NCBI GenBank assembly: GCA_965203175.1
Contig: OZ241867.1
Location: 5,728,001 to 5,792,000 of the forward strand
DNA length: 64,000 nucleotides
Origin: Candidatus Latescibacterota bacterium
GTDB taxonomy: Bacteria > Latescibacterota > UBA2968 > UBA8231
Direction: 5' to 3'
The translations under genes and the position numbers were made by a program. Positions 176-28,886 of this stretch are shown piece by piece. A model generated the notes under the pieces. It saw only the letters and a program-made list of their open reading frames with translations. It was not told where the DNA came from and did not search any database. How positions within the stretch are numbered: the stretch's first letter is position 1; each line of letters opens with the position of its first letter.

Positions 176-880
176 TTAGCGGGCGCAGCGAAAGCCTATG
201 GTGTTGCCCTTGATGTACGAATGCGAGTCCTTGGTGTTGGTCCGCTTGTTGCACTGGGTCAAGGTCGGGCCATTGACCCACGATCCCCCGCGCAGGAACT
301 GCATTTTCTCGCCTCCTTGCGTCCACTCCCACACATTGCCGCCCATATCCAAGAGTCCAAAAGGACTGGCTCCACTCGGAAAGGATCCCACCGGCGCCGT
401 TCGCGCATGGCCGTCTTTGTCTCCGAAAATATTAGCGCGTCCCTCCTCAAAATCCGCCCCCCACGGGTACTTTAGCCCTTCAACTCCCTCACAGGCGAAT
501 TGCCATTCCTCCTGCGTCGGCAGGCGCTTGCCCGCCCACTGGCAATAGGCCATCGCCCCGTACCACGACACCTCAATGACCGGATGCCGCGCAAATCCTT
601 CTTTGACCTTGTACACACCGTCTTCCTCCACTAGCGCCGTATATCGACTCCCCAACTCCACCCAGTACATGCCCTCCACCTTGGCGTTTCCCTTCTCGGT
701 CAGAAAAGCTGCGTACTCCTCGTTGGTCACCTCGTATTTATCTATGTAAAATTCGCTCTTTTCTCCTGCGATCTTTACCATCTCCCCGCCCTTGAGGGAG
801 TCGGCCGCGGCTTGTCCCTCCTGGGCCAAAGCCGAGGCCGCAACGGCAACACACAGCGCGATTCCGCAAAACACCTGCAT
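176..880 (-). CDS. Secreted FGE-sulfatase (SUMF1/EgtB/PvdO-fold) domain protein
   Basis: Signal peptide; motifs FYIDKYEVTNEEY, HPVIEVSWYGAMAYCQWAGKRLPTQEEW, FGLLDMGGNVWEW, RGGSW, IGFRC. Confidence 0.9.
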   Translation of the reverse strand: MQVFCGIALCVAVAASALAQEGQAAADSLKGGEMVKIAGEKSEFYIDKYEVTNEEYAAFLTEKGNAKVEGMYWVELGSRYTALVEEDGVYKVKEGFARHPVIEVSWYGAMAYCQWAGKRLPTQEEWQFACEGVEGLKYPWGADFEEGRANIFGDKDGHARTAPVGSFPSGASPFGLLDMGGNVWEWTQGGEKMQFLRGGSWVNGPTLTQCNKRTNTKDSHSYIKGNTIGFRCAR

Positions 881-1746
881 TATTTCTGCTCCCGTCCATC
901 CAGCGCGTATTCCCGCACCATTTTGGCAAATCCATCGTCGGCAAAACTCGGTCCAATCCGCACTCCATCCCCGGCTACGGCCGTCTTTACCTCGTCCTTT
1001 GCATTCCCCAGCAACACCCCAGTCCCCGCCGCGCGCAACATGGGCAAGTCGTTGTCCGCGTCCCCTACCGCCAAGACGCGCTCTGTACTCCCACCTATCC
1101 GCTCGGCTAGCGTCCGCAGAGCTACGCCCTTATCCACGCCCCGGCGCATAAATTCCACCCGATCGGGAATCGCCCACGCTATATAGACCCGATCTCCGCA
1201 CAGCGCTTTGATATCGGCGATGTGCTGCTCCCGCCGCGCCGGATCTACCTCCAGCATGAGCTTGGGCGGTACGCCCAACTCGCCGCTCTGGCAACGCGCG
1301 TACAAATCAACGTCGAGCACCATGCCCGGCCCTCTGAGTGCTTCGAGGTGATCTATAGGCCGGACATGCCGGTACTCCTCGGCGATCCCTGCGTCCGTGC
1401 GTTCGAATAGACAGTACATCAGGTTTAGCCCCTCGGCGCGTCCGTATTCGACTATTTGGGCAAAGGACTCCTCGTCCAATCGCTCCTCGTGCAGCACCTC
1501 TCGCTCCGCTCCTTCTCCCGGCCCGAGAATCACCGAGCCATTATAGCCAGCCATGTAAAGTGCCCGCGCCAGTGTTGGATGAGACTCAAAAGGGTGTTGG
1601 ATGCGCAGGATGCTGCGCCCAGTGACGCTGGCTATGGGGATGCCGCGCACAATCAGCTCCTCGAGCGTCGCCGCAGCCGAATCTGCCAGCCGCCCTTCTG
1701 CGTCGAGTATTGTACCGTCGAGGTCAAAAGCCACTAAGTCGATCAT
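880..1746 (-). CDS. Cof-type HAD-IIB hydrolase
   Basis: Start re-set to MIDLVAFDLDGT (ATGA overlap with the upstream stop). Motifs DxDGT, VTGR, DKG, VGDADNDLPML. Confidence 0.9.
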   Translation of the reverse strand: MIDLVAFDLDGTILDAEGRLADSAAATLEELIVRGIPIASVTGRSILRIQHPFESHPTLARALYMAGYNGSVILGPGEGAEREVLHEERLDEESFAQIVEYGRAEGLNLMYCLFERTDAGIAEEYRHVRPIDHLEALRGPGMVLDVDLYARCQSGELGVPPKLMLEVDPARREQHIADIKALCGDRVYIAWAIPDRVEFMRRGVDKGVALRTLAERIGGSTERVLAVGDADNDLPMLRAAGTGVLLGNAKDEVKTAVAGDGVRIGPSFADDGFAKMVREYALDGREQK

Positions 1747-3134
1747 CGTTCCTCCTGTTGTAAAGTTTGCAACCGCGAGCGCGCGTGGACCAGTCGCTGC
1801 GCCTCGCTCGCGTCGTCTTCTGCCAAAGATGCGTACGCGCGCCACTCGGCCCGCGCTCGGCCGGGGTCTAACCGCTCGTAGGTCGAGGCGAGGTGAAAGC
1901 GCCACAGCGCCCGCTCGGGTTCGAGCCGAACGGCCTCCTCACCGGCCTGCACAGCCGCGGCGAGCAAGCCCAACTGCCGATAGACATCGCCCAAGGACGC
2001 GAAAAGCTCGGCGTGGTGCGGATGCGCGACCGTGGCTTCTTTGAACACCTGCACAGCCGCGCGCAGCCGCCGCTGATGCACGTATAGCCCTCCTAACTTC
2101 AAGGCCGCATCCCCTTCCGCTCCGCCCAACGCGATCGCTGCCTTGAACGCCTCTTCCGCTGCGTCGAGCGCGCCCATGCGACTGTGGACGATGCCAATGC
2201 TTACTTGGGCCGCGGCATTGCCGGGCTGTCGGTTAGCAAACGCGGCAAACGCGGCCAGTGCCGAGTCCAGCCGCCCTTCTGCGCTGTGAATCAAACCAAG
2301 ATAGCGATAAACCGGGTACAGGTCGGGATCGGCGGCCTGCGCCCGTTCAAACTGCGCCAGGGCCCCTGTTCCATCTCGTTCCTCCCAGAGCAGCCGCCCC
2401 AGTTCGTAGTGCAAGACGGCTTCCTCGCCCCCCCCATCGCGTGCGCCCAAACCCTCGACGAGCGCGGCGCGGGCCAACTCCCGTTGCCCGGTCTCTCTGT
2501 ATAGCGCGGCGAGGTCGGCCCGGATCCCAGGGTCTTTGGGCGCACTAGCGAGCGCCTGCTCCATCAGAGCGCGCGCCTCCGCGTCCCGCCCCAACCGCAC
2601 CTCTACCCGCGCTAGTTGGTAGCGCACCTCCGCCTGCTCGGGCGCAAGCTGTAGGGATGCGCGATAGGCCGCCTGCGCCGCGTGGAGATTTTCTTGCAAG
2701 TGGCCGAGCGCCTGATAGGCGTGGCCCAGCCACGCGTAAATAAGCGCCGACTTCTCGCCCCGGCGCACGGCGTCCTGATAGGCACGCAGTGCCCCGCTAT
2801 AGCGCCCTTGGGCGGCTAGGCTAAGCCCCAGTTCGGCATAGGCGCGCCCGTCGTCGGGGCGTGCCTCCACTAGGCTGCGGTAGAGTGCGGTCGCGTCTTC
2901 GTACGCACCGCGCGCCACGTAGAGCGCGGCCAAGGTAAAGCTCGCCTCGTACAATTCGGGATCGAGTGCCCGCGCCTGCGCTGCTAGGCGTTCGGCCTGT
3001 GCCAATTCGGCCTGACTCAAGCTCCGCAGCGGCCGGCCGCCGATCAACTCCTGCGCTTGGCGGTACGCGGTCGGCGCATCCGGCTCGGCGGCGCACCCAG
3101 CCAATAACAGCGCGATTGCAGCCAGCACCTTCAC
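1743..3134 (-). CDS. TPR-repeat lipoprotein
   Basis: Lipobox LLAGC; many TPR-like helices (A..LG..Y...G....A...Y..A....P). Confidence 0.85.
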   Translation of the reverse strand: MKVLAAIALLLAGCAAEPDAPTAYRQAQELIGGRPLRSLSQAELAQAERLAAQARALDPELYEASFTLAALYVARGAYEDATALYRSLVEARPDDGRAYAELGLSLAAQGRYSGALRAYQDAVRRGEKSALIYAWLGHAYQALGHLQENLHAAQAAYRASLQLAPEQAEVRYQLARVEVRLGRDAEARALMEQALASAPKDPGIRADLAALYRETGQRELARAALVEGLGARDGGGEEAVLHYELGRLLWEERDGTGALAQFERAQAADPDLYPVYRYLGLIHSAEGRLDSALAAFAAFANRQPGNAAAQVSIGIVHSRMGALDAAEEAFKAAIALGGAEGDAALKLGGLYVHQRRLRAAVQVFKEATVAHPHHAELFASLGDVYRQLGLLAAAVQAGEEAVRLEPERALWRFHLASTYERLDPGRARAEWRAYASLAEDDASEAQRLVHARSRLQTLQQEER

Positions 3135-5197
3135 CGCGTCTCCCTTTCCCTGAGCAACAAGTGCTGGTCGGCCTCAATATCCCGATACACATCGACCTGC
3201 CCACTGGGCCACGCCACCTTAATGCGATCAGCCCGCACCCGTTGCCCCAAACCAAATTCCAACTCCAAGCTGTTGCTGTTGCCAAAGCTGTATCCAGAAG
3301 CTACCTCTTGGTACTGCATCAAGTCGCCGGCATACACCCATACTTTGGCACCGATTCCGTCGCGATTGCTCTCGACCCCTTCCAACTCCAGCACCAAGTA
3401 GTGATTGCCAAAGCCCTCGCTGCGGTAGAACGCATTGGGCCACTGGTCGCCCGGCTGAGCGCCGCCCACTGGCGCATAGAGGTCGAGATCGCCGTCGCGG
3501 TCGTAGTCGGCAAAGGTCACGCCGTGCGATTTGCCCAAGTGCCCCAGCCCGGCGGCTACCGTCGCATCGACAAAGGTGCCATCGCCCCGATTGCGGAAAA
3601 GCACATCCGGCTCGCGCCGGCCCATCTGCGGCCCGCCGTTGCCGAGGTAGATATCTACCCAGCCATCGTTATCCACATCGCCGGGAACGCCGCTCATCGT
3701 GCCCAGCGCTCGCTCTAGCCCGGCAGCTTCCGTCACATCGGCAAAGGTGCCGTCGCCCTTGTTGCGAAAAAGCACCGGCCGGTCGCGCTCGCTCGTCGAT
3801 TTTCCCGCGACTCGATCGGCCAGCACCACCAGGTACTGGCTCCAGTTGCCCACGAAGATGTCCAGCGCACCGTCGTTGTCGTAATCGAGGACAAACGTTA
3901 TAAAGCCATCGATGTACTCGGCACCTACACCGGCCGCTTCCGTCTGATCCGCGAACGCACTGCCACTTCGATTGCGATAGAGCACATTCGGCTCGGTAAA
4001 ATTGCACACGTACAGATCAGGCCAGCCATCTCCGTCAAAGTCGCCCCACGCCGTGCTTAACGCCTGCCCCTTGTGCGCCACCCCGGCGGCTTCCGCCACA
4101 TCGGCAAAGGTGCCATTGCCACGATTGCGATAGAGCACATTGGTCGAGTCGCCAGTCGCGCCCGTGCCATTGGCCACGTAGATGTCGAGGTATCCATCGC
4201 GATCGAAATCGCTCCACGCCGCGCAAAAGCTCGATCCCGGATCGCCCGTACCCGACACTTCCGTCGCATCGGCGAAGACGCCCCGGCCGTCGTTTTGGAA
4301 GAGCGCATTCACGCCGCCGCCAAACCACCCATCGCGCGTCACGTACACATCGGCGTCCCCGTCGTTGTCGTAGTCAGCCGTCTGCACCCCGATCCCGCCC
4401 TCGGGTAGTACCAATTCAGCGGCCTGCGTCCGCTCGGCAAAACGCGCGCCGTCGTTGCGGAAGTACGCCAGTGCTGGATGGCCGATGACGATCAAGTCGA
4501 GATCTCCGTCCTCGTCGTAGTCGGCCCAAGCGCTAGCGCGACCTCCGTCGAATTTATCGACTCCCACCTCGGCCCCGATCTCGCTAAACCGCCCGCTGAT
4601 GGTTCCCTGCGGCACGGCATCGGCAAATTCCCCGGTCGCCGACCGCCCCAATGCCTCCTGCAACCACTTCCGGTGCCAGCGCAACTCCAGCGGCTCGGGA
4701 TGCAACGCCACGGCCTGTTGCAAGATCGAATCGGCGTGGGCGTAATCCTCCTGCCACAGCGCGGCAACCGCCGTCCAGTAGAGCGATTCATATCCCTCGG
4801 GATCGGCGGCCAGCGCCCGCTGCAAATACTTTTCCGCCTGCGCGAACTGCCCCTCTTCCAGCGCCTCTTTCCCCCGACCCAAAAACGTCTCCAACACCAA
4901 AGACCGCGCCGCCGTTAATTCAGGGTCCAGGCTCGCCGCCTGTTCCAGCAACCCCACGCCTTCTTCTATCCGCCCCTGCACGAGCCGCACCCTCCCTAGC
5001 TGCCAGTAGCCCTCGGCGGCCTCGGGTTCCAGCCGAACGCAATGCGCAAAAGCGCGTTCGGCCGCCCTGAGCCGATAGCGCTCCAGCAAGTCCAAGCCCT
5101 GGTAGTACGACTGGAGAAACGCCTCTGAGCGGCCAGTCGGCTCTTGGCAACCGCTTAGGACGAGGAGAGAAAGGGTAATGACTAGAGAAACTCTCAT
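3131..5197 (-). CDS. Lipoprotein with N-terminal TPRs and an FG-GAP/ASPIC-UnbV (CRTAC1-like) domain
   Basis: Start re-set to MRVSLVITLSLLVLSGC (lipobox). Repeated DYDNDGDxD / FRNxGDGTFAD motifs; C-terminal SNRDGIGAKV...LEFGLG...WPSG. Confidence 0.9.
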   Translation of the reverse strand: MRVSLVITLSLLVLSGCQEPTGRSEAFLQSYYQGLDLLERYRLRAAERAFAHCVRLEPEAAEGYWQLGRVRLVQGRIEEGVGLLEQAASLDPELTAARSLVLETFLGRGKEALEEGQFAQAEKYLQRALAADPEGYESLYWTAVAALWQEDYAHADSILQQAVALHPEPLELRWHRKWLQEALGRSATGEFADAVPQGTISGRFSEIGAEVGVDKFDGGRASAWADYDEDGDLDLIVIGHPALAYFRNDGARFAERTQAAELVLPEGGIGVQTADYDNDGDADVYVTRDGWFGGGVNALFQNDGRGVFADATEVSGTGDPGSSFCAAWSDFDRDGYLDIYVANGTGATGDSTNVLYRNRGNGTFADVAEAAGVAHKGQALSTAWGDFDGDGWPDLYVCNFTEPNVLYRNRSGSAFADQTEAAGVGAEYIDGFITFVLDYDNDGALDIFVGNWSQYLVVLADRVAGKSTSERDRPVLFRNKGDGTFADVTEAAGLERALGTMSGVPGDVDNDGWVDIYLGNGGPQMGRREPDVLFRNRGDGTFVDATVAAGLGHLGKSHGVTFADYDRDGDLDLYAPVGGAQPGDQWPNAFYRSEGFGNHYLVLELEGVESNRDGIGAKVWVYAGDLMQYQEVASGYSFGNSNSLELEFGLGQRVRADRIKVAWPSGQVDVYRDIEADQHLLLRERETR

Positions 5198-5294
5198 AGC
5201 AGAAACAACATCCGCCGTCTTTTGCCTGCTGTCAATTTCTAGTACGTTGTTACGTCTCTTTTGACATCTTTCACCAATAAAAGGAGCACCCATA

Positions 5295-6407
5295 ATGAAA
5301 TGGACCCTCTTCTTCGTCGCTTTCCTCTGGACGGCTTCGCATAGCACGGCCGAAGACCGCCCCACCCTCGTACTCGACGGCCAAGCAGCCATGCTAGTCG
5401 TCGATTTAGGCGGCGGCTCCATTTCCGACTTCCACCTCAAAAGCAATCCGCTCAACCCCTTGCAATGGGATTCTTGGTCTTTCGGCGACACCCCCAACCA
5501 AGCGCCGCCCATAGAGCCGCGCTCCATGGGGCACTTCCTCTGCCTCGACCGCTGGGGGCCGGCCACCAAAGCCGAGCAGGCCCACGGCATGGGCTGGCAC
5601 GGCGAGGCCACGCGCGTGTGGTGGACCGTAGATGAGGACGTCCGCGCAGAAGACGGTCACCTCATGGCCCAAATGTCGGCCGAACTGCCCCTGGCCAGCC
5701 TCAAGGTAGTGCGCTCGATTCGCATGGCTCAGGATCAGGCCATCTTTGCAGTCGCCGAGGCCGTCACCAACACCCGCCATTTGGGACGCGTGTACAACAT
5801 CGTCCAGCACCCAACCATTGGTCCACCCTTTTTGGACGAGAGCACCCGCGTTGATGCCAACGGCACGCGCGGCTTTATGCAGGAAACGCCCATGCCAACG
5901 CCCGAGAACCCGGAGGTGAGCTGGCCCTCCGCACTCAAAAAAGACGGCACCGAGGTCGATATTCGCCATTTGACGGATGACGCCTCTCCAGCGGTCGTCT
6001 CGTACATAATCGAGGAAGAATACGGTTGGACCACAGCCATCAACGCCAGCAAAGGACTCCTTATTGGCTACATCTGGCCGGAGGAGGAATACCCTTGGTT
6101 CGACGCTTGGCGGCACGTCCGCGACGGCAAGCCCTTTGCCCGCGGCTTGGAGTTTGGCACTACGGGCCTGCACCAACCTAGCCCGGTGTTGTTGGAAAAG
6201 GGCCAGATTTTCGGCCGCTATCTCTTTCACTATATCGATGCCGACGAGACCCAGGTTTTCACCTACGCCAATTTTCTCATGGAGATTCCCTCCGACTTCG
6301 CCGGCGTTTCTGATGTCGAATACTCCGAGGGGCAGCTAGTGGTGCGCGAGGACGGCGGTCAGGGCCGAGAGCTGACGATGGAGGCGGGAGAACTTTTTGC
6401 GTGGTGA
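5295..6407 (+). CDS. Secreted galactose-mutarotase/aldose-1-epimerase-fold protein
   Basis: AAGGAG RBS at 5281-5286; signal peptide; GWHGEA, VQHPT and RGLEFG motifs in the order expected for the mutarotase His/His/Glu residues. Confidence 0.55.
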   Translation: MKWTLFFVAFLWTASHSTAEDRPTLVLDGQAAMLVVDLGGGSISDFHLKSNPLNPLQWDSWSFGDTPNQAPPIEPRSMGHFLCLDRWGPATKAEQAHGMGWHGEATRVWWTVDEDVRAEDGHLMAQMSAELPLASLKVVRSIRMAQDQAIFAVAEAVTNTRHLGRVYNIVQHPTIGPPFLDESTRVDANGTRGFMQETPMPTPENPEVSWPSALKKDGTEVDIRHLTDDASPAVVSYIIEEEYGWTTAINASKGLLIGYIWPEEEYPWFDAWRHVRDGKPFARGLEFGTTGLHQPSPVLLEKGQIFGRYLFHYIDADETQVFTYANFLMEIPSDFAGVSDVEYSEGQLVVREDGGQGRELTMEAGELFAW

Positions 6408-6563
6408 AGAGATAAGAGGGATAGGTTATAACTGATCCGCTAACTTTGGCCGTTGATGCCCTGAAGCAACCGATGGAGAGTAGGAAAGAGTGAGGACTGT
6501 GGGCCCGAAGTAATTCTCAAACTGAAGGATCGGCCCCGCGTCGAAAGTTCGCAGCCTCTCAGC

Positions 6564-7397
6564 CTACCCTTCCTCCCGCGCCACCTTCCCCTTGACGACC
6601 CACTCGGCCAGCGCCGGCCACAGGGCGTGGACCATCGCCAGCAGCCTGAGCCGCCTCGGAACGTAGAGCTGCTGGCGCCGCTTCAGCATCCCGCGCACAA
6701 TCGCCCGCGCCGCCTTCTCCAAGCTCACCGCTCCCGCCCGGTGTTTGCGCGATGCATCGCCCAACGCCTTCCCGTCTTTTCCCAGAGCACGTTGCCGCAA
6801 CTCCGTCCCCTTGAGCCAGTGCAAGAGCACGGTCATCACCCCCACCCCACTCTCGGCCACCTCCATCCGCAAAGCATCGCAAAACCCCTGTAGCGCGTGT
6901 TTGGACGCCGAGTACCCTGTGTGCAGCGGCACCCCCACCTGCCCCTGAATGGACGAAATAGCCACGAATAGCCCCTTGCTTTTTTTCAGATGCGGCAGCG
7001 CCGGATGCGCGCAATGCACGGCCCCCAAGTAATTCACCTCCATCAGCTTGCGGAATAATGCTACATCCTCGATCGCGGCAAACGCGGTCCACATGCTGAC
7101 GCCAGCGTTGGCGACCAAGTAATCTATGTGCCCAAAGCGCTCGATCGCGGCCTCCACCAGCCGCTTGCCATCCTCGGCTATGGCGACATCCCCAACGACA
7201 GTCAGCACCTCGCTCCCCAACTGCTCGCACTCTTGGGCGACGGCCTCCAACCGCTCGGCATTCCGCGCTAAGAGAACCAGCCGCGCTCCCTGCTGGGCGC
7301 ACTCCACCGCCAGCGTCGCGCCCAAGCCCGCAGAAGCACCAGTGATAACAACGGTCTTATTGCTCAGGCTTCCGGCGCGCACTCCCAAAAATCCCAT
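6564..7397 (-). CDS. Short-chain dehydrogenase/reductase, DHRS7B-like
   Basis: TGASAGLG, LVANAG, ISSIQG, YSASK (YxxxK). Start at ATG 7397 (MGFLGVRAGSLSNKTVVITG) is inferred. Confidence 0.9.
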   Translation of the reverse strand: MGFLGVRAGSLSNKTVVITGASAGLGATLAVECAQQGARLVLLARNAERLEAVAQECEQLGSEVLTVVGDVAIAEDGKRLVEAAIERFGHIDYLVANAGVSMWTAFAAIEDVALFRKLMEVNYLGAVHCAHPALPHLKKSKGLFVAISSIQGQVGVPLHTGYSASKHALQGFCDALRMEVAESGVGVMTVLLHWLKGTELRQRALGKDGKALGDASRKHRAGAVSLEKAARAIVRGMLKRRQQLYVPRRLRLLAMVHALWPALAEWVVKGKVAREEG

Positions 7398-7506
7398 TCT
7401 GAATGCCGAAAATATTCTGGGGATCCAGCGCTTCTTTAGTCTTGCGCAGGACCTCGATGCTGTTGTCGCTCTGGATGTGCTGGACAAAGCTCTGCCGAAT
7501 TTTGCC
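7334..7506. repeat. 173-bp direct repeat, copy 1
   Basis: Matches 8449-8621 with 4 substitutions. Contains the 3' end of the FAD oxidase gene and the 5' end of the SDR gene. Confidence 0.97.
7357..7506 (-). pseudogene. Duplicated 3' fragment of the alkyl-DHAP-synthase-like gene
   Basis: Encodes GKIRQSFVQHIQSDNSIEVLRKTKEALDPQNIFGIQNGIFGSARRKPEQ* with no matching upstream coding sequence. Confidence 0.85.
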
Positions 7507-8448
7507 GGCCCTATGGGTGAAGGGACAGCTCCTGGGCCGCTGCGTATGTCAGCCGCGCCAGCTCGGCCGGCGATTCACCCCGGCGAGGAGTGGCCACCTC
7601 GAAGGTCCAGAAACCGCGGTAGCCGACCTCTCGCAGGGCCTCGCGGATCGCCTCCCAGTCGAGGTCCCCCTGCAGCGGGGCCCAGTGGTTGTCCTGCGGG
7701 TCCTCGCCGTCGACGTCCTGCAGATGGGTTCCCCACAGGCGCTCGCCCGCGGCCCTGATTTCCCCGCCCGGGTCGTTCCCCGCGGTCCAGGCGTGGCCGG
7801 TGTCGACCACCAGCCCCACCGCCTCCTCCGGGTAGTCGTCGACGAGGCCGCGCAGCTCCGTCATGGTCAGGAACGGGTAGTGGGAGCGGTAGGGCAGGTT
7901 TTCCAGCAGAATTCGCACCCCCGACTCGAGCGCCACCGGCACCAGGTCGTCGAGGGAGCGCCGCGCCGCCCCGGACATGATCCCGGTCAGCTCCGGGCGT
8001 TCCGGATCCTCGACGAACCGCGGGTTCGGCACCGGGTGGATGACCATGCCGCCGGCGCCGAGGGCGCCCGACATGCGCAGGTACTCCCCGAGCAGGGCGG
8101 CCTTCTCCCGCCGCCAGTCCTCCTCCGGGGCACCGAGCACGTTGCGCATCATCGGCGCGTGCACGGTGCCGGTGCGCAGATCGGACCCCTCGATCCGCGA
8201 CCGCAGCTGCTCGAGCTCCCGGCTCGTGAAGATCCGTTCGAGGTGGCCCTCCTGCGAGGAAAGCTCGATGTGGGAATACCCGGCGGCGGCGATCTCATCG
8301 AGGGCCTCATCGAGCGGGTCCTTGAATCCTGCGGTGGCGTAGCTGATTTGCATTGGTCCGGTCCTCCTAAGGGAATCGGTTGATCGGTAACTTGATGGAC
8401 AGCCCGGGCCCGGCGAGGGCCGCAGACCCGTGGGGCGTTTTCACAACA
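7507..8448. mobile_element. 942-bp higher-GC single-gene insertion between 173-bp direct repeats (no recombinase)
   Basis: Bounded exactly by the two repeat copies; by eye more G/C-rich at third codon positions than the flanks. Confidence 0.7.
7511..8353 (-). CDS. Sugar phosphate isomerase/epimerase (xylose-isomerase-like TIM barrel, AP_endonuc_2)
   Basis: AGGAGG RBS; motifs IEL, VHAP, VIHP, ILLENLP, VDTGHA, THLQD, HWAPLQGDLDW, TFEV. Confidence 0.88.
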   Translation of the reverse strand: MQISYATAGFKDPLDEALDEIAAAGYSHIELSSQEGHLERIFTSRELEQLRSRIEGSDLRTGTVHAPMMRNVLGAPEEDWRREKAALLGEYLRMSGALGAGGMVIHPVPNPRFVEDPERPELTGIMSGAARRSLDDLVPVALESGVRILLENLPYRSHYPFLTMTELRGLVDDYPEEAVGLVVDTGHAWTAGNDPGGEIRAAGERLWGTHLQDVDGEDPQDNHWAPLQGDLDWEAIREALREVGYRGFWTFEVATPRRGESPAELARLTYAAAQELSLHP

Positions 8449-8512
8449 AAGCACCGGTGATAACGACGGTCTTATTGCTCAGGCTTCCGGCACGCACTCC
8501 CAAAAATCCCAT
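8441..8512 (-). pseudogene. Truncated duplicate of the SDR 5' end
   Basis: Reads MGFLGVRAGSLSNKTVVITGALL*; the frame stops just after the repeat/insert junction. Confidence 0.8.
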
Positions 8513-8621
8513 TCTGAATGCCGAAAATATTCTGGGGATCCAGCGCCTCTTTAGTCTTGCGCAGGACCTCGATGCTGTTGTCGCTCTGGATGTGCTGGAC
8601 AAAGCTCTGCCGAATTTTGCC
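8449..8621. repeat. 173-bp direct repeat, copy 2
   Basis: Matches 7334-7506 with 4 substitutions. Confidence 0.97.
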
Positions 8622-10313
8622 TACCCCGTGGTGGTGGGATAGCGAGCCGCCGTTGTCCAAGATCGTCTGCCGCAGCGCGTGCTCAATGTCGTGATAGACC
8701 TCAATGGGATGCTCCAATCCCCGCCCAGAAAATCCCATCGTAAAGTAGATGCACACCCCCGTGTGGTACGTCTGCGTCACCCGGTACGACAGGTAGGGCC
8801 GCCCGGCGACGCCGCGCGCGCTACACTGCGCGGTCAACTCCGCTTGTACGGCCTGCGTCACGTCGTGGATGCGACTCCAAGGCACAGAGGTCTCAAAGGT
8901 TTCGCCTAAAAAATCGAACTGGTTCAAAAAGTCGCGTATATAGGCGATCCCAAAGGTCGCCATGTAGCCGCGCCGGCCGTTGGTAGCGCCGGCGCTCTTG
9001 CCACCGTGGGCCTTGGCCAGCTTGAAGATCGTCCGCTTCTGGTGCGCGACCTCGGCATGGGTTCCCTCCATGGCGATCGTACACGCCGCCATTTTTAGCG
9101 GATCAAATCCCAACACCTTCAACAAGGCGAACTTCTGCACCTTTTCCTTGAGGTGTTTCAAGGGAGAGGGCGCAGCCTTGAGGGCCTGGCCGAAGCGAAA
9201 TTCTTGGTTGTTGACCAAGCGGATACTCGCCGGCAAGGTCCCGGTCTGGCGCAATGCCTGCAAGTACTCCACGCCTTGGGCGAAGGACTTGAACACCAAC
9301 GAGCCGTATTCGCGCACTTCTGGTAGGGGATGGATCTTGAGCACGGCCTTGGTGATGATGCCGAGGTTGCCCTCTGAGCCAAAAAGCAGCCCGCGCGGCT
9401 GGATGCCAGTCGAGTTGCGCGGCGTGGTGTGCAAGGTCTCCACCGCTCCGGTCGGCGTCACCAAGGTCGCTTCGAGGACGATATCTTCGATATTGCCGTA
9501 GCGGTTTTTCTTCATGCCGCTGGCATTGGTGGCGATCCAGCCGCCCAAGGTCGAAAGCTCAATGCTGTCGGGATCGTGGCCGACGGTGTAGCCCCGAGCG
9601 GCGAGTTCTCGCTCCAGCTCCTTGCCCGAAATCCCCGCTTCGATGCAAGCTTGGAGGTTGTCCTCGTCGAGATCGACAATTCGGTTCATGCGCCGCATAT
9701 CGACCGAGGCGAAAACGCGATCGTCGTCAGTGGGCAGGGCCAGCGCACCGCTGACGTTGGTGCCACCACCGTAGGGCACGAGGCAGACATTGTGCTCGGA
9801 AGCGAGGCGCACGATGGCGCGCACGTGATCTCCGCTTTCTGGATAAATCACCAGATCGATCACTCGCTCCAAGGCGTCGCCGTAGAGCAAGCGATAAACC
9901 TCATCGACGCTGAGCTGGCCGTGACTGTGGATCAGGCGCTCCTCGTCGTCGAGCGAAACCCGCTCTGCGCCGAGCTCGTCTTGCCAAGCGGCGACGAGGC
10001 TTGCGTCTGCCCGCGAGGGCGGTACCTCGTGGCTCTCTTTTTCGACGGCCATCTCGTCGGGGTCAATCGGAACCTGGAGCATTTCTTCGACAAAGGGGAT
10101 GAAATGCGGCATGGTGAAGCCGGCCAGCGGATAGCGGCTGCCGGTCACCCGCACGGTCTTCGGCCCATCGAACTCAAAGCGGGTGTCCGTGTAGCCCCAT
10201 TTGTGCGGATGGCGCTCTCCGTCGGAGAGATCGTAGCACGCATCGGCCGCGGCTTGGCGGACAATGGCCGCGGCAACGGCGAAGACGGCGACGGCGAGGA
10301 CGACTTCGAGCAT
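8472..10313 (-). CDS. FAD-linked oxidase, alkyl-dihydroxyacetonephosphate synthase (AGPS/ADAS)-like
   Basis: KWGYTDTRF...TGSRYPLAG, HSHG, PYGGGTNV, GHDPDSIELSTLGGWIATNASGMKKNRYGNIED, GSEGNLG, PASIRL, ETFETSVPW, VTQTY, GGSLSHHHGVGK; hydrophobic N-terminal anchor. Confidence 0.88.
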   Translation of the reverse strand: MLEVVLAVAVFAVAAAIVRQAAADACYDLSDGERHPHKWGYTDTRFEFDGPKTVRVTGSRYPLAGFTMPHFIPFVEEMLQVPIDPDEMAVEKESHEVPPSRADASLVAAWQDELGAERVSLDDEERLIHSHGQLSVDEVYRLLYGDALERVIDLVIYPESGDHVRAIVRLASEHNVCLVPYGGGTNVSGALALPTDDDRVFASVDMRRMNRIVDLDEDNLQACIEAGISGKELERELAARGYTVGHDPDSIELSTLGGWIATNASGMKKNRYGNIEDIVLEATLVTPTGAVETLHTTPRNSTGIQPRGLLFGSEGNLGIITKAVLKIHPLPEVREYGSLVFKSFAQGVEYLQALRQTGTLPASIRLVNNQEFRFGQALKAAPSPLKHLKEKVQKFALLKVLGFDPLKMAACTIAMEGTHAEVAHQKRTIFKLAKAHGGKSAGATNGRRGYMATFGIAYIRDFLNQFDFLGETFETSVPWSRIHDVTQAVQAELTAQCSARGVAGRPYLSYRVTQTYHTGVCIYFTMGFSGRGLEHPIEVYHDIEHALRQTILDNGGSLSHHHGVGKIRQSFVQHIQSDNSIEVLRKTKEALDPQNIFGIQNGIFGSACRKPEQ

Positions 10314-10352
10314 AGCTCAATCTCCTAGCACTAATTAAGTGATCAGTAGCTA

Positions 10353-11405
10353 CTACAGCCCCTCCTGCACGTCCTTTTTCCGCACCTTCCATATAAATGC
10401 GTCGTAGTAGTAGTGGATCAGGGCAAAGGAACTGAGCAGCGAATAGCTGAAGAGGTCGAAATTGGTGTTGAAGCCAACGAGGCCAAAGCCAAAGTCGCGC
10501 ACCAAGCCCTCGCTCAGCGCGTGAAAGACGACGGCATAGGCTGCGCACAGCAGGAGAAAGAACTTGACGCCCCCCTTGCCCGCCACGTAGCGCATGAGGG
10601 CCGAGTCGCCGCCCGTGCGCTCGACCTTGTGGCGGTTGTAGAAATACACCATGACGATGTACTGGATCCCGTGCATGATCCGGTGCGCCACCGCAAAGAC
10701 GAGCAGATAGGCCGTGGTAAAACTAGTGAAGTACCACAGAAAATAGCTCGACAATAGAAAGGCGTATTTGAGGGGATTGAGCGCGTAGCCGCGCCAGGCG
10801 CAATAGGCAATGTGTCCCACGTAAACCAGGCCGTAGGCAATGGCAATAGTCCACGAGACTAGGTGTACCGTCGTCACCGCTTCCGCGCTGATGGGCAGGT
10901 GCCACTCGTGCAACATGCGCACCCAGACCGTAGAAAAAAGCGGCGACACCACGAGCATGTTGCCAAAGAAGATCCAATTGAAGGCCAAGTCGAACTTGGC
11001 AGTCGCGGGCGTGCCGGCCTTGGCCTTGAAGTCGTACACGCGCGCAAAGCCGTATTGCTGCATCAAACTGTGCTGGTGATCCCACAAAGTCACGATCAAC
11101 ACCAAGCTCAACGGTGCCCACTGGATCAGGCCGTAGGCAAAGGCGACCAATACTATCGGCCCGAGAATGAACCGCTCCTTGAAGCGGGCGAATTCCGCCG
11201 GCGAGCCATAGACGCGCAACCAAGTGACGAAGTGGTGCGGAATGGTTACCCACAAGGCAATGGCCGCCAGCGCCGCCCCCGGCAGGTAGTGCCCCGACAC
11301 TAACGCAAAGCAGACCGCGGCAAAGGGCAGGCTTACAAACCAGATATAGTCCTGCCGGCGATCGACAATATAGGCAGGTTGCAGAACGATGGAATTACTC
11401 GCCAT
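10353..11405 (-). CDS. Polytopic membrane protein with conserved-looking His motifs, function unknown
   Basis: Many hydrophobic segments; PHHFVTW, WDHQHSLMQQYG, AHRIMHGIQY, LIHYYYDAFIW. Confidence 0.75.
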   Translation of the reverse strand: MASNSIVLQPAYIVDRRQDYIWFVSLPFAAVCFALVSGHYLPGAALAAIALWVTIPHHFVTWLRVYGSPAEFARFKERFILGPIVLVAFAYGLIQWAPLSLVLIVTLWDHQHSLMQQYGFARVYDFKAKAGTPATAKFDLAFNWIFFGNMLVVSPLFSTVWVRMLHEWHLPISAEAVTTVHLVSWTIAIAYGLVYVGHIAYCAWRGYALNPLKYAFLLSSYFLWYFTSFTTAYLLVFAVAHRIMHGIQYIVMVYFYNRHKVERTGGDSALMRYVAGKGGVKFFLLLCAAYAVVFHALSEGLVRDFGFGLVGFNTNFDLFSYSLLSSFALIHYYYDAFIWKVRKKDVQEGL

Positions 11406-12960
11406 GAGAAGTCAGGGCTAGTGCCACAGCGTCTGGGCTGAAGCGGATTTCGTTGGCGCGGCGCTGGCGCAGAGACGCAGCCAGCTCCTTGACCGCAGCT
11501 TGGAGCTGCGCCGTCGCCCAATCCGCCTCGACCCGCTCGCGGATCTCGTCCAGCGGCGGCAGTCGATCCGGGCGGCGGCGCAATACCTGTAAGACAATAT
11601 AACCATTATCCGTGGCAAAGGGACCGTGAAAAGTCCCTTCGTCGGCGCGCAGAGCGCGGCTGACCGGATTGTCGCCCTCTAGCGCGCCGCTGCCGTAAAT
11701 CACGCTGACGAAACGATCCGCTAGCTCGGTCGTATCGCGACCGGCGCGCATCCGCTCGACAATGGCGGTGCCCTCGGCCTCGTCGCGGGCGAGGAGCCGG
11801 CGCACCTCCACCTCGGCCGGCGCGGTGTAACGGAGCTTGTGCTCCTCGTAAAACAGGCTCAGGCCGTTGGGATTGGGCGGTGGCACCTGCGCTTGCAGCG
11901 CGTCCTGCAAGCGCCGCGCAAGCTGCACCTGCCGCAGTCGCTCCAACTCGCGTTGCAGGTCCGGGTCGGCGGCGAGTGCGAGCCGCGTGGTTTCGAGCGG
12001 GACCAACACGCGCCGCCCGACCTCGCGCCGCAGCACCTTCTCGCTCGCGCCTTGGCCCTTTAGCAGTTCGCGGGCCCGCGCGACCGTTAGCACCCCGCCG
12101 TCGTACTCGGCCACGACGGCCTCTGGCGAACGGTCCGCCGCTAGCCCATCCAGCTCGTAGCGCACATTATAGCGCGCGTGCAGGGTGTCGTAATAAGCCA
12201 AGAGCTGCCGCCCGAGCTTTTCCCGCATCACCAAGCGCTGAATGGTCTCTCGCTCCTGCTCGAAACTAACCGGGTGCATGTCCGTGAGCTTGATGAGAAA
12301 GTACCCATCGGCCACCTGCATCGGCTCGGAGATCTCCCCGATCTGCATGGAGAAGGCCCTTTCGGTCAGGGCGGCGTGCGAGGCCATGGTATCGCCCCAG
12401 CGGTGATAGCCCATGTCGGCCTGACGCTCTAGAATCCGCGAATCCTGCGAGTGCCGCATCGACAGTTCCTCAAAGTCCGCTCCTTCGGCGAGTGCGGCCA
12501 AAATCTCCGGCAGTTGCTCTTGGTCGCGCACCATCAGCAGGCTGAAGCGCACGCGGCGGTTGTACGGGCTGCGCTGGAAATAGGCTCGCAGTTCCTCCTC
12601 GGCGACCTCGGGTTGGACGATCCCGGTGCGCTCGTACAAAGCCTGCTGCACCAGCCGCGCCTGCGCCTGCGCCTGCCACTGCAAAAACTCCGCGCTCTCG
12701 CCCAATCCCCGCCGCTCGGCTTCCTGCACGAGCAGCGTTTGCTCGACGATGGCTTCCAACAGTTTCTCAGCCCCGTATTCCACCCGCAATTCCGGTGCCA
12801 CTCGCGCGATGTAGTGGCGATAGTCCGCCACCCGAATCGCCATTTGCCCCACCTCCACCAAAACGGCATCCTCGGTGGCCATGGCCGGGCCGTCCTCAGC
12901 GCAGCCGATTAGGCCGAGCAACGCCGAGCAAAGTGCCATTCCCATCCAACGCTTACTCAT
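11395..12960 (-). CDS. PpiC/SurA/PrsA-like foldase lipoprotein
   Basis: Lipobox LIGC; EAERRGL SurA-N-like helix; GADFEELSMRHSQD...DMGY...GEISEP...GYFLIK parvulin domain plus a second degenerate one. Confidence 0.85.
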   Translation of the reverse strand: MSKRWMGMALCSALLGLIGCAEDGPAMATEDAVLVEVGQMAIRVADYRHYIARVAPELRVEYGAEKLLEAIVEQTLLVQEAERRGLGESAEFLQWQAQAQARLVQQALYERTGIVQPEVAEEELRAYFQRSPYNRRVRFSLLMVRDQEQLPEILAALAEGADFEELSMRHSQDSRILERQADMGYHRWGDTMASHAALTERAFSMQIGEISEPMQVADGYFLIKLTDMHPVSFEQERETIQRLVMREKLGRQLLAYYDTLHARYNVRYELDGLAADRSPEAVVAEYDGGVLTVARARELLKGQGASEKVLRREVGRRVLVPLETTRLALAADPDLQRELERLRQVQLARRLQDALQAQVPPPNPNGLSLFYEEHKLRYTAPAEVEVRRLLARDEAEGTAIVERMRAGRDTTELADRFVSVIYGSGALEGDNPVSRALRADEGTFHGPFATDNGYIVLQVLRRRPDRLPPLDEIRERVEADWATAQLQAAVKELAASLRQRRANEIRFSPDAVALALTSHGE

Positions 12961-14323
12961 GCTGCTCGCTCTCTTTCATCTGCTGGATCGCCGCTAGCTC
13001 CCGCTTGCTCTCTTCTACCTTTCCCAACTTCAAGTACGCCACAGCTAACTTCTGCCGCGCGTCGAGCCAGTCCGGCCGGGCCGCCACCACAATGGTCAGC
13101 ATCTCGGCAGCCTTGGCGTAATCACCGACGCGCGCGTGCAGCAGTCCCAAAAAGTAATGTGTCTCCACATCTTCCGGCGCTAAGCGGCGCGCCTCTGCGA
13201 GGCTAGCTAGGGCCTCGTCAAAGCGCTGCAAGCGCATGTACGCCTGACCTAGATTGTAGTGGGCATTGGCGTATTCTGAGTCCAAGGCCAGCGCGGCTTG
13301 ATACTCGACGACGGCCTCGGCGAGTTGGCCCAAGCGCAGGTAGAGGTTGCCTAGGTTGTTGCGGTAGCGCAAGCTGTCCGGCGCGAGCCGCACGGCCAGC
13401 CGATATGCTTCGGCCGCTTCAGTCAAGCGCCCCTGTTCTGTATACAGCAGGCCCAGTTGCGCCCGCGCCTCGTGGTCGTCGGGCGCATTGCCCAACATCC
13501 GCAGTTGGTCGTCGATTTTGTCGAGCTGCTGGTCGAGCTCCCGAAACTGCGTCAGCACTTCGGTGCTCTCTTCGCGGCGGCCGAGCCGCTTGAGGGCATT
13601 AGCCAGCGCGAAGTACGCCTCTTTGGACAAGGAGTCGAGCGCAATGGCGCGGCGAGCAGCGCGTTCAGCCGCCGCGTACTCGCGCCGCTTGAGTTCCACC
13701 TGCGCCAGATCGACGTACGCGGCCGCGGCCGTGCTGTCCAGCTCGACCGCGCGCGTCAGAGTCGCCGCAGCCCGCTCAAAGTCGAGTTCCTTCAGGCGCG
13801 TCCGGCCCAAGAGCCGGTAGAAGGAAGCATTGGTCGAGTCGCGGTCCAGGCCCGCTTGCAGCAGCGTCTCCACCTCGCCGTACTCACCGCGCAAGAAGTA
13901 GATGTAGCCGAGGTCGTAGTAGGTCGTCAGATGGCTGGGATCTAACGAGAGCACCCGGCGGTGTTCGTCAATAGCTTGGGCATAGTTGAGCTGTTTGACG
14001 TACATGGCCGCGAGGTTGTGCCGCGCTGATACGTGCGTCGAATCCAGCGTCAATACGCGCTGATAGGCCGCCATCGCGCTGGGGTAATCGAGCTGGCGCA
14101 CGTAGGCATTGCCGAGGTTGTAGTGAATCTTAGCGGATTTAGGTGCGAGTGCGGCGGCCTGTTTATAGGCGTCAATAGCTTCCGTGTGGCGGCCTTCGGA
14201 GGCGAGCGCAGTGCCGCGCGTAAAGAGCACTTCGGCGTCCATGGCTGCGCCAGGACGCACTTTTTCCTGCGGACTTTCCTCCGCACAGGCGTACAATGCG
14301 AGACAGATCAGCAGCACCTTCAT
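12953..14323 (-). CDS. TPR-repeat lipoprotein
   Basis: Start re-set to MKVLLICLALYAC (ATGA overlap); repeated HYNLGNAY / NNLGNLY TPRs. Confidence 0.9.
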   Translation of the reverse strand: MKVLLICLALYACAEESPQEKVRPGAAMDAEVLFTRGTALASEGRHTEAIDAYKQAAALAPKSAKIHYNLGNAYVRQLDYPSAMAAYQRVLTLDSTHVSARHNLAAMYVKQLNYAQAIDEHRRVLSLDPSHLTTYYDLGYIYFLRGEYGEVETLLQAGLDRDSTNASFYRLLGRTRLKELDFERAAATLTRAVELDSTAAAAYVDLAQVELKRREYAAAERAARRAIALDSLSKEAYFALANALKRLGRREESTEVLTQFRELDQQLDKIDDQLRMLGNAPDDHEARAQLGLLYTEQGRLTEAAEAYRLAVRLAPDSLRYRNNLGNLYLRLGQLAEAVVEYQAALALDSEYANAHYNLGQAYMRLQRFDEALASLAEARRLAPEDVETHYFLGLLHARVGDYAKAAEMLTIVVAARPDWLDARQKLAVAYLKLGKVEESKRELAAIQQMKESEQHE

Positions 14324-15948
14324 TGCGCCGCTCCTTCGACGAGCAAATGCTCTTGGTTGATGCCTAAATCTGCGTATTCCTCGACCCGGCCGCTCGGCCA
14401 ATAGACGATTACACGCTCAATACTCGTGGCCGTTCCTAACCCAAAGTGCAGTTGCACGTCGCTCTGCGAGAGGTAGCTGGCCCCCGAGCGTACTTCGTCG
14501 GTTTGCACCCGTCCGTCACTTACTACTTCGACGCGGGTGCCGATGCCCGCGCGGTTGCTGTCGCGGCCCTCTAGCCGCAGCCGCACCCAGTGGCCACTCG
14601 CGCCGTCGTTGCGCATCAAGGTCGGCTGAGCGGCGACATTGGCCACTAGCATGTCGATATCCCCATCGTCGTCGTAGTCGCCAAAGGCCGCGCCGCGACT
14701 GACTCGTTTCAACGACAAGGCACCGCCGTCCTCTGCGTATTCCTCAAAACGGCCGTCGCCAATGTTGAGAAAGAGCTGATTGCGCTGCGGGAAGGTCGCG
14801 TTCTCGTATTGCTCGACATCGCTTTCCAAGTGGCCATTGGCGATAAAAAGATCGCGGTCGCCATCGTTGTCCACATCGAAAAAACGCGTACCCCACGCCA
14901 AGTAGGCAATGCTGCCCTTGCCCAACCCAGCCAAGAAGGTTTCATCGACAAAGGTGCCATCGCCGAGGTTTTTGTACAGTGTATTCGTCTCCCACTGAAA
15001 GTTGGTAACGAAGAGGTCGGGATCGCCGTCATTGTCATAGTCGCCCATGTCAACGCCCATGCCCGCTTCGACATCCCCGTCCTCGTTGTACGCAACTCCG
15101 GCCAGCAGCGCTTCGTCCGCAAAGTGGCCAGTGCCGTCGTTGAGATACAAGAAGTTCGAGGTCTTGTCGTTCGCTAGGTAGAGGTCGGGATCGCCGTCGA
15201 GATCCACATCGCCGAAGACCACCCCTAGCTCCTTGCCCTCGGCACTGCCCAACCCGGCTGCGGTCGTGATGTCGGCAAAGGTGCCATCGCCCCCGTTCCG
15301 ATATAGCACGTCGGTCACCCCGTCAAAGGCCTCCGGGCCGCAATAGAGCTGAAGCCCGCTGCCACCCTCGGCGCAGACGCGGTGATTGGTATAGGAGAAG
15401 TTGTGGTAATTGCCCACGTACAAATCGACGAAACCATCGCGATCAATGTCGGCAAACGCAGCACTCGCTCCCCAACCCTCGTCGCCGACTTGGGCCGCGA
15501 CTGTCACATCCGCAAAGGTGCCATCACCCTCGTTCCGATATAGCACATTCGCGCCGAAGTTGGTCACGTACAGATCGAGGTCGCCATCGTTGTCGTAGTC
15601 GCCGACCGCGCACCCCATGCCGTAACCCGTGTCGCCGACACCGGCGTGCGCCGTTACATCGGCAAAGGTGCCGTCGCCGCGATTGTGGTAGAGCGCGTTT
15701 TGCGGCGCGGGGTCGTAGTCGGTCCCAGGCACAGCGGCCCCGTTGATTAGGTAAATGTCGAGACGACCGTCCCCATCGTAGTCGAAAAGTCCCCCGCCGG
15801 GACCGACTGTTTCAATGACGAACTTCTGGCCGTTGGCCCCATTGACGTGGACAAAGCCAATACCCGCTTCTTGGGTGGCGTCGTGGAAGCGAGGGCTGGC
15901 GTAGAGGGGGACGGACAAGAGAAGCAGAAGCAGAAAGAAATTGAGCAT
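14320..15948 (-). CDS. ASPIC/UnbV FG-GAP (CRTAC1-like) secreted protein
   Basis: Signal peptide; DYDNDGDLDLYVTN repeats; NFQWETNTLY; SGASYLSQS...HFGLG...WPSG. Confidence 0.92.
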   Translation of the reverse strand: MLNFFLLLLLLSVPLYASPRFHDATQEAGIGFVHVNGANGQKFVIETVGPGGGLFDYDGDGRLDIYLINGAAVPGTDYDPAPQNALYHNRGDGTFADVTAHAGVGDTGYGMGCAVGDYDNDGDLDLYVTNFGANVLYRNEGDGTFADVTVAAQVGDEGWGASAAFADIDRDGFVDLYVGNYHNFSYTNHRVCAEGGSGLQLYCGPEAFDGVTDVLYRNGGDGTFADITTAAGLGSAEGKELGVVFGDVDLDGDPDLYLANDKTSNFLYLNDGTGHFADEALLAGVAYNEDGDVEAGMGVDMGDYDNDGDPDLFVTNFQWETNTLYKNLGDGTFVDETFLAGLGKGSIAYLAWGTRFFDVDNDGDRDLFIANGHLESDVEQYENATFPQRNQLFLNIGDGRFEEYAEDGGALSLKRVSRGAAFGDYDDDGDIDMLVANVAAQPTLMRNDGASGHWVRLRLEGRDSNRAGIGTRVEVVSDGRVQTDEVRSGASYLSQSDVQLHFGLGTATSIERVIVYWPSGRVEEYADLGINQEHLLVEGAAQ

Positions 15949-28879: not shown

Positions 28880-28886
28880 GGCATGT

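Follow-up and report, generated by a model that had tools for sequence, protein, structure and literature searches.

The locus analyzed here raises the question of whether two bacterial genes that resemble consecutive enzymes of animal ether-lipid synthesis work together in one pathway. It lies at positions 6564-10313 of a 64,000-nucleotide (nt) stretch of DNA from a Candidatus Latescibacterota bacterium (contig OZ241867.1; the whole stretch is hereafter called the window) and comprises, on the minus strand, a gene for a homologue of alkyl-dihydroxyacetone phosphate (alkyl-DHAP) synthase, AGPS, and a gene for a classical short-chain dehydrogenase/reductase (SDR). An earlier note, made from the sequence alone, had described the two as adjoining; instead, we found three intact genes, with a 280-amino-acid (aa) TIM-barrel gene, which had gone undescribed, separating them. 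We consider it fairly probable that the flanking AGPS and SDR genes encode the middle steps of an aerobic ether-lipid pathway of the animal/myxobacterial type, interrupted by the later insertion of this foreign TIM gene. The three genes are as follows:

8472..10313, minus strand: AGPS orthologue, 613 aa (Pfam FAD_binding_4 and FAD-oxidase_C; match to PDB 4bby)
6564..7403, minus strand: classical SDR, 279 aa, proposed acyl/alkyl-DHAP reductase (Pfam adh_short; NCBIfam PRK06181)
7511..8353, minus strand: inserted xylose-isomerase-like TIM-barrel gene, 280 aa, sugar-phosphate isomerase/epimerase family (Pfam AP_endonuc_2, 1.7e-31)

The oxidase carries all the motifs listed for it in the earlier note (KWGYTDTRFEF...TGSRYPLAGF, NASGMKKNRYGNIEDIV, LPASIRLVNNQEFRFGQALKAAP, GRRGYMATFGIAYIRDF, ETFETSVPWSR, RVTQTYHTGVCIYFTMGF, and GGSLSHHHGVGKIRQ in the 613-aa translation), and the two-domain VAO/PCMH-type FAD fold is present (Pfam FAD_binding_4, 4.5e-40; FAD-oxidase_C, 2.8e-36). 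When compared with all PDB chains it matched guinea-pig AGPS (4bby) at E=2.4e-148 and 498.6 bits, with query residues 37-601 aligned to chain positions 94-656; the N-terminal residues 37-150, which lie outside the Pfam FAD domains, align to chain positions 94-205. Dictyostelium AGPS (2uuu) gave 291.1 bits (1.6e-85). The best non-AGPS chain, the putative oxidoreductase 3pm9, reached only 95.2 bits (3.6e-26), and D-lactate dehydrogenase and glycolate oxidase chains about 91 bits, which bears out the earlier assignment of the oxidase to the AGPS type. Residues R365, R460, T513, Y523, and H560-H562 align with guinea-pig R419, R515, T568, Y578, and H615-617 and show no or almost no variation among 12 bacterial sequences, while the PDB variant 4bca differs from 4bby exactly at the Tyr that matches Y523. 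We take Tyr578, the His615-617 loop, and Arg419 (guinea-pig numbering) to be active-site residues of AGPS. The domains FAD_binding_4 and FAD-oxidase_C are common to AGPS and to enzymes of the GlcD/D-lactate-dehydrogenase type, and the NCBIfam GlcD model TIGR00387 matches the oxidase at 173 bits, as would be expected if it were a flavoenzyme of that type merely resembling AGPS. This explanation is nevertheless close to refuted, as the score is far under the model cutoff of 567.9, the AGPS chains reach 291-499 bits vs. at most 95 bits for every other PDB flavoenzyme, and the HHH loop, the Tyr, and the Arg are all conserved. The grouping with GlcD/YgcU-type enzymes that the earlier note had set beforehand as the contrary outcome was not found, and a true AGPS orthologue is supported. 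Its N-terminus is hydrophobic at about residues 3-18 and probably tethers the protein to the membrane.

The SDR matches Pfam adh_short (2.7e-50) and the NCBIfam model PRK06181, "SDR family oxidoreductase" (294.4 bits, cutoff 215). The motifs reported earlier, KTVVITGASAGLGATL and ISSIQGQVGVPLHTGYSASKHALQGFCDALRMEVAE, are in its translation, and the classical-SDR set is present, with the TGASAGLG cofactor motif, the ISSIQG serine, and the YSASK catalytic motif. An Arg directly follows strand 2 (LLARN), and a basic residue at this place is the usual NADP(H) signature of classical SDRs; the cofactor is probably NADPH. The gene had been taken to start at TTG 7487 (a 307-aa open reading frame, ORF), but ATG 7403 (279 aa) is the most likely start because relatives, which are 277 aa long, align from residue 1 of the ATG form. 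So read, the protein starts MGFLGVRAGSLSNKTVVITGAS, with the Rossmann motif from residue 15 and no hydrophobic segment ahead of the Rossmann fold. Its best 120 database matches are all bacterial. The nearest solved chains in the PDB are a hydroxyacyl-CoA dehydrogenase of the MFE-2 type (5.2e-29) and 11beta-HSD1 (4.4e-28). The DHRS7 subfamily, which includes the mammalian alkyl-DHAP reductases DHRS7B and DHRS7, is described as close to HSD11B1 and HSD17B4 (PMC13200781). The PDB neighbours of the SDR are compatible with kinship to this subfamily but are no test of membership in the DHRS7B clade. An ESM Atlas search for a name returned generic SDR clusters, of which the one at rank 3 was called "3-dehydrosphinganine reductase".

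More can be learned about the SDR from the company that it keeps. One genome per GTDB species was scanned, which gave at least 600 pattern matches; 584 of those listed encode AGPS relatives, and the best 80 loci of the matches listed form the comparative set. They belong to metagenome-assembled genomes (MAGs) mostly labelled Candidatus Latescibacterota or Gemmatimonadota (loci that are nearly identical can bear one name or the other), with a few labelled Trueperaceae, Planctomycetota, Poribacteria, Neomarinimicrobiota, Hydrogenedentota, Acidobacteriota, Chloroflexota, Spirochaetia, and others. Among the 64 loci with an AGPS at least 61% identical to that of the window, an SDR orthologue lies downstream on the same strand in 57, no SDR was found in 5, and 2 had no room for one. 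The 57 linked orthologues are 45-95% identical to the SDR of the window, 49 of them within 350 nt of AGPS and 8 after a gap of 390-1780 nt. The 16 loci with a more distant AGPS included 1 with an SDR orthologue, 3 (L074, L075, and L078) in which a classical SDR of another kind (30-32% identity) directly follows AGPS, 11 with no SDR, and 1 with no room. SDR and AGPS matches shared contigs in the protein searches also. This genomic linkage supports a functional tie between the SDR and AGPS.

Other genes of the expected pathway were met further upstream. A reductase for fatty acyl-CoA (FAR) and/or a protein of about 650 aa lie just upstream of AGPS on the same strand in 25 of 79 loci, and 15 loci hold both together with the SDR, in a survey by crude greedy ORF clustering that misses some genes. 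The FAR has a NAD_binding_4 domain (1.2e-62) and a C-terminal "Sterile" domain (1.9e-16). The ~650-aa protein could not be named by sequence, since single-sequence and profile searches of the PDB returned nothing and Pfam Acyltransferase matches were weak (7 of 16 members, best E=0.011, none significant); an invariant His is followed at +5 by Asp (9/16) or Glu (7/16). The fold search settled it: the AlphaFold2 (AF2) model (pLDDT 76.2, pTM 0.81) has PlsC (5kym) as its best PDB match (E=6.5e-4, target TM 0.61), and next come plastid GPATs, PatA, and human GPAT1. Judged by this model, the protein is a PlsC/GPAT-fold acyltransferase (AT) with a large helical N-terminal part, as a DHAP acyltransferase would look. 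Loci L069 and L064 encode FAR and acyltransferase as one fused protein upstream of AGPS, while in L073 and L076 AGPS is followed by a FAR-AT fusion and then by a NAD-epimerase-type reductase. A FAR-AT-AGPS-SDR operon is present in the related loci, and a reductase beside AGPS recurs in three unrelated forms, our strongest argument that this slot belongs to the keto-reduction after AGPS. The reductase role of the SDR is well supported by synteny, and linkage and operon together argue that the most likely task of the pair is to form alkyl-DHAP and then reduce it to 1-O-alkyl-glycerol-3-phosphate.

An AGPS this well conserved could also be accompanied by an SDR with another task, such as reducing a fatty aldehyde to the fatty alcohol that AGPS uses, or reducing another lipid ketone (e.g., a 3-keto-sphinganine-like base), with alkyl-DHAP reduced by an unlinked enzyme. 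Such a role would suit an SDR with generic motifs and one ESM Atlas neighbour cluster auto-named 3-dehydrosphinganine reductase, as well as a window without a FAR, in which an alcohol supply is needed. However, 15 operons keep the SDR although a complete FAR, Sterile domain included, is already among their genes, and FARs of this type release fatty alcohol. Moreover, three unrelated types of reductase occupy the slot behind AGPS in different clades, as expected if the pathway required a step there. Once AGPS has acted, exactly one keto-reduction is required (PMC9131029), which also counts against another substrate, and we regard this alternative as unlikely.

For the preferred reading, in which the pair synthesizes an ether-lipid precursor, the following mechanism is proposed. 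The AGPS flavoenzyme would replace the acyl chain in 1-acyl-DHAP by a fatty alcohol, giving 1-O-alkyl-DHAP, and the SDR would reduce the 2-keto group, probably with NADPH, to 1-O-alkyl-sn-glycerol-3-phosphate. This product could enter ordinary phospholipid assembly through ordinary acyltransferases and yield alkyl (plasmanyl-type) glycerolipids, while the suppliers of acyl-DHAP and fatty alcohol (a GNPAT-like acyltransferase and a FAR) would be encoded elsewhere, if at all. As no PEDS1/CarF-type desaturase was seen in Pfam scans of the window or the loci, the predicted products are alkyl rather than alkenyl ethers. We infer the substrate and cofactor of the SDR, the membrane tethering of AGPS, and the lipid products. 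A wider reading, which we put forward tentatively and hold to be less than likely, is that the AGPS-linked classical SDR family as a whole is a bacterial acyl/alkyl-DHAP reductase, and that the operon of FAR, PlsC-fold acyltransferase, AGPS, and SDR could be a complete, oxygen-tolerant counterpart of the peroxisomal pathway. The four-gene operon in question occurs in MAGs labelled Latescibacterota or Gemmatimonadota, and in some labelled Trueperaceae, Poribacteria, Planctomycetota, and Hydrogenedentota.

The position of the window among these loci was examined in an AGPS tree (quick IQ-TREE run, 80 rows, midpoint root for drawing only) that holds 79 loci; L071, with its AGPS cut by a contig end, was left out. 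The window AGPS falls in a fully supported 16-row clade, where the upstream neighbour is a 350-aa membrane protein and not a FAR or acyltransferase. This clade is nested in a 68-row clade (SH-aLRT 99), and FAR-AT-AGPS-SDR operons occur in all three of its main branches. The layout of the window looks derived, the pair having moved or the upstream genes having been lost from its neighbourhood. Several other lipid genes recur around these operons: a YegS/DAGK-type lipid kinase (DAGK_cat + YegS_C) lies about 1-3 kb downstream of the SDR in L040, L049, L051, L057, L061, and L062, and FabH and YceD genes are found upstream of AGPS-SDR on the other strand in 12-14 loci, which places the operon in a lipid-synthesis neighbourhood. 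In two loci (L031:6064-6837 and L060:6204-6962), AGPS has an additional SDR immediately upstream (257 aa, adh_short_C2 type), beside the usual downstream SDR.

A number of observations weigh against ether-lipid synthesis by the pair. Pfam scans of 37 ORFs across 64 kb confirmed that the window holds neither a FAR nor a GNPAT-like gene, and among the 16 loci of the AGPS clade to which the window belongs, neither a FAR nor an acyltransferase was found at a distance of up to 7 kb; the pair may lack substrates unless such genes sit elsewhere in the genome. With two upstream steps absent from the window, the "compact" bacterial route suggested in the earlier note is not supported. Five loci with an AGPS of at least 61% identity lack a downstream SDR, of which L029, L035, and L036 had 7 kb of room and L010 and L012 had 1.0-1.2 kb. 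The SDR itself shows generic classical-SDR features only, its PDB, NCBIfam, and ESM Atlas matches name no substrate, and the insert may disturb co-expression of the two genes. In addition, a survey of sponge holobionts with bacterial agps detected no short-chain plasmalogens (bioRxiv 10.64898/2026.06.23.733905), and cultured Pontiella with elbD homologues did not produce ether lipids (PMC11868695); having the genes therefore does not prove that the lipids are made.

The same absence of FAR and GNPAT from the window and from the nearest 16 loci could be expected if the pair salvaged or remodelled ether-lipid precursors of a eukaryotic host instead of making lipids for its own membrane, the more so as agps homologues are reported from Latescibacterota symbionts of sponges, hosts that are rich in ether lipids (bioRxiv 10.64898/2026.06.23.733905). 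Against this stands the fact that sister clades with the same AGPS-SDR pair hold FAR and acyltransferase in the operon and are hence self-sufficient, and no transporter, lipase, or host-interaction gene linked to the pair was found by Pfam scans in the 64-kb window. Furthermore, AGPS consumes acyl-DHAP and a free alcohol rather than finished ether lipids. Nothing that we found supports a route handling host ether lipids, which the earlier note had offered as its second possibility, and we consider it quite improbable.

The junction between the two genes preserves the history of the insertion, and its parts are given below:

8449..8631, minus strand: repeat copy 1, with the functional AGPS 3' end (stop 8472-8474) and a dead SDR 5' remnant
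7517..8448, minus strand: insert between the repeat copies, 932 nt, with a 95-nt leader that has a GGAGGA box ahead of the ATG, followed by the TIM gene
7334..7516, minus strand: repeat copy 2, with a dead AGPS-end remnant and the functional SDR start (ATG 7403)

The TIM gene is bracketed by a direct repeat of 183 nt (7334-7516 / 8449-8631, 96% identity, spacing 1115 nt), of which the first ~10 nt, on visual inspection, match by chance, leaving a true duplicate of ~173 nt with 4 mismatches. Copy 1 contains a dead 23-codon SDR start (ATG 8518, stop at about 8447) with the translation MGFLGVRAGSLSNKTVVITGALL followed by the stop, and copy 2 a dead leftover of the 49 codons that end AGPS (about 7357-7506), without a start codon. 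In 10 close relatives without the insert (L001-L008, L014, and L066), the SDR starts inside the AGPS end, with an overlap of 47 nt including the stop codon; the duplicated junction is real, and the earlier view that the two genes had originally overlapped was right. An assembly artefact was rejected as the origin of the repeat, as its copies differ at 4 positions and the same insert occurs in the independent L013. We propose that in an ancestor of the lineage AGPS and SDR would have been translationally overlapped by 47 nt, and that the GC-rich foreign TIM gene would later have been inserted at the junction with duplication of its ~173 nt; this duplication would have let AGPS keep its 3' end and stop and the SDR its start, leaving one dead copy of each gene end. 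Integration by single crossover of a circle carrying a homologous stretch would give such a flanking duplication, and recombination between the direct repeats would excise the insert precisely.

Among the 80 loci, the TIM gene is present only in L013, a chromosome-level record. The left insert junction is identical in the window and in L013, right after ...ATCACCGGTGCT. The insert of L013 lacks 56 nt that the window carries at the left edge (8394-8449, a GC-rich stretch); L013 also lacks the 113-nt AGPS remnant ahead of the SDR start, and its duplicate is only about 70 nt long. The insert (window 7503-8393 vs. L013:8799-9689) is 98.65% identical and the flanking genes about 93%, i.e., mismatches affect 12 of 891 nt in the insert vs. 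188 of 2662 nt in the AGPS and SDR genes on either side (Fisher p=8e-13), which indicates that the insert spread or was exchanged after the two genomes had diverged. In the AGPS tree, L013 groups with the insert-free L001 and L014 (SH-aLRT 92, very short branches), suggesting either recent lateral exchange of the insert or its repeated precise loss via the direct repeats. The TIM gene is compositionally foreign, with a GC content of 70.2% and a third-position GC content (GC3) of 90%, compared with a GC3 of 77-79% in its neighbours. Its protein has 338 homologues with source names such as "sugar phosphate isomerase/epimerase" or "hexulose-6-phosphate isomerase", the family is common in Latescibacteria and Planctomycetota, and the best NCBIfam model, CbiR, scores 52.8 bits (cutoff 105); we saw no reason to assign it to the lipid pathway.

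An insertion between formerly overlapping genes, the dead gene-end remnants, and the lack of upstream pathway genes nearby are also what a decaying locus might look like, in which the insertion uncoupled the genes and the pair, left without FAR and acyltransferase, is no longer used. Yet both ORFs are intact with all catalytic residues, and across 11 close relatives the AGPS protein is 91-97% and the SDR protein 85-95% identical while the DNA is 86-94% identical, which indicates purifying selection on both genes. A second species, L013, keeps the same insert with both genes intact. Decay is, in our assessment, highly improbable, and we retain the reading of a working pair interrupted by a later insertion.

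The AGPS/SDR junction was hit repeatedly in other genomes. It holds a DUF433 + DUF5615 pair in L057 (8805-9361), presumably toxin-antitoxin-like, a DUF6036 nucleotidyltransferase with a small partner in L049 (8730-9667) and at the same place in L052, and a 537-aa PhyH-like protein in L011 (7480-9093), while L018, L021, and L023 have unannotated spacers of 390-660 nt. Two further ORFs at the locus, a 247-aa ORF overlapping the SDR in another frame (6559-7302, minus strand; GC3 0.43 vs. 0.79 for the SDR frame) and a 326-aa ORF antisense to the TIM and SDR genes (7403-8383, plus strand; GC3 0.73), are taken as high-GC by-products and not as genes. A scan of 6300-13200 for promoters and terminators found no excess over shuffled sequences (1 promoter-like site vs. 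1.3, and 8 terminator-like sites vs. 5.4).

Among the known routes to glycerol ethers, the animal peroxisomal one is matched by a full-length AGPS homologue with conserved active-site residues. Animal AGPS carries a PTS2 peroxisomal targeting signal, in place of which the window AGPS has a hydrophobic N-terminus, and mammalian DHRS7B carries an N-terminal membrane anchor, which the bacterial SDR lacks. Another difference from the animal pair is that the window-type genes are operonic and once overlapped. In animals, the step after AGPS is likewise assigned to an NADPH-using classical SDR, i.e., DHRS7B (PexRAP) and DHRS7 (PMC13200781, PMC7517302).

Myxococcus xanthus also clusters a bacterial AGPS with other ether-lipid steps: MXAN_1676-1674 encode AGPS, a FAR-acyltransferase fusion, and a NAD-epimerase-type protein, and when MXAN_1676 is deleted, the ether lipids of that pathway are no longer made (PMC13012113, PMC9131029). 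This layout was seen only in L073 and L076 and not in the window, where the TIM insert and a classical SDR come after AGPS. Unlike the Myxococcus type, window-type loci have a classical instead of an extended SDR after AGPS; their FAR and acyltransferase are separate upstream genes, or absent as in the window, and the acyltransferase is too divergent for Pfam detection. The window AGPS is only 47-50% identical to the Myxococcus-type clade. The idea that window-type AGPS is nearer to animal AGPS than the Myxococcota-type clade is was rejected on its lower scores against 4bby (498.6 and 508.3 bits for the window type, 561.1 and 547.8 for the Myxococcota type), which counts against the window-type operon as the donor to eukaryotes and makes it no better a candidate for that part. 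Eukaryotic PEDS1, FAR, and GNPAT are traced to myxobacteria in PMC13012113, in which AGPS is called phylogenetically uninformative. The ElbD/elbB-elbE system of myxobacteria and Acidobacteria SD4 is another aerobic route to alkyl glycerol ethers with FAR-like and acyltransferase domains (PMC11868695, PMC9131029), but ElbD is a multidomain ACS-ACP-FAR-AGPAT protein without AGPS, and nothing such was found by Pfam scans of the window. Bacterial glycerol ether lipids also arise through the anaerobic PlsA/PlsR and Ger ester-to-ether reductases (PMC13159169), which reduce an existing ester by unrelated chemistry and belong to unrelated families, none of which was found in the window by the same scans.

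The occurrence of AGPS in Latescibacterota, as in many other phyla, was known already: agps homologues were found in 67 of 92 Latescibacterota MAGs in a BLAST survey of the Black Sea (PMC11868695) and in sponge-symbiont MAGs of this phylum (bioRxiv 10.64898/2026.06.23.733905), and distant homologues are mentioned in PMC13159169. Our literature search found no description of an SDR partner for bacterial AGPS or of the four-gene operon, although preprint supplements may list the same agps hits; the partner and the operon form are apparently new.

Next to the pair lies one more gene, given for context only:

10353..11405, minus strand: polytopic membrane protein, 350 aa, upstream neighbour of AGPS, without Pfam or NCBIfam match

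No Pfam or NCBIfam model matched this protein even at E<=5. Its homologues number 730, of which 42 fall at E<=1e-30, and most of the 730 are 550-820 aa long with C-terminal TPR repeats; the invariant residues of the family include D19, H57, R64, H112, Q116, R122, Y124, D139, and H245. Its AF2 model (pLDDT 88.6, pTM 0.88) found no fold match in the PDB at E<=0.001, and the gene lies upstream of AGPS only in the clade of the window (12 loci by ORF clustering, 13 by tblastn). A role as a PEDS1/CarF-like desaturase or another ether-lipid enzyme was considered unsupported, given the lack of family and fold matches, the TPR-bearing homologues, and the restriction to this clade. It represents an undescribed membrane family with a possible metal or active site, probably stands outside the lipid pair, and probably belongs to a gene theme that recurs at 176-5611, 11395-15948, 20374-32084, 53924-55834, and 61265-62863 of the window, with FG-GAP/ASPIC-UnbV proteins (some TPR-fused), TPR proteins, two PPIC-type peptidyl-prolyl isomerases (521 and 541 aa), and two DUF6785/DUF6784 membrane proteins. 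Elsewhere in the window (34748-44433, plus strand) is a run of four large proteins with CHU_C (type IX secretion sorting) and/or FlgD-Ig-like domains at the C-terminus, and F5/8 type C domains are present in two of them as well.

Bacterial glycerol ether lipids occur widely in sediments, water columns, and sponges and serve as biomarkers, while their producers and pathways are mostly unknown. Earlier surveys treated the agps matches of Latescibacterota as single genes. What is added here is that AGPS in these phyla is accompanied by a dedicated reductase and often also by a fatty acyl-CoA reductase and an acyltransferase whose divergence hides it from Pfam; the result is a known pathway in a new operon variant. 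The locus further indicates that a foreign gene can enter between two overlapping genes and kill neither by duplicating their shared junction, and small mobile cassettes have landed at the same AGPS/SDR junction in other genomes. The four-gene set can be expressed and assayed, and it offers a candidate for the one step in the bacterial AGPS route still lacking an assigned enzyme. The SDR might be a bacterial sister of eukaryotic DHRS7/DHRS7B, in which case all four "peroxisomal" steps would have operonic bacterial counterparts. Should the tentative wider reading of the operon be true, environmental monoalkyl glycerol ethers would have a large, unrecognised source in the uncultured phyla that bear it.

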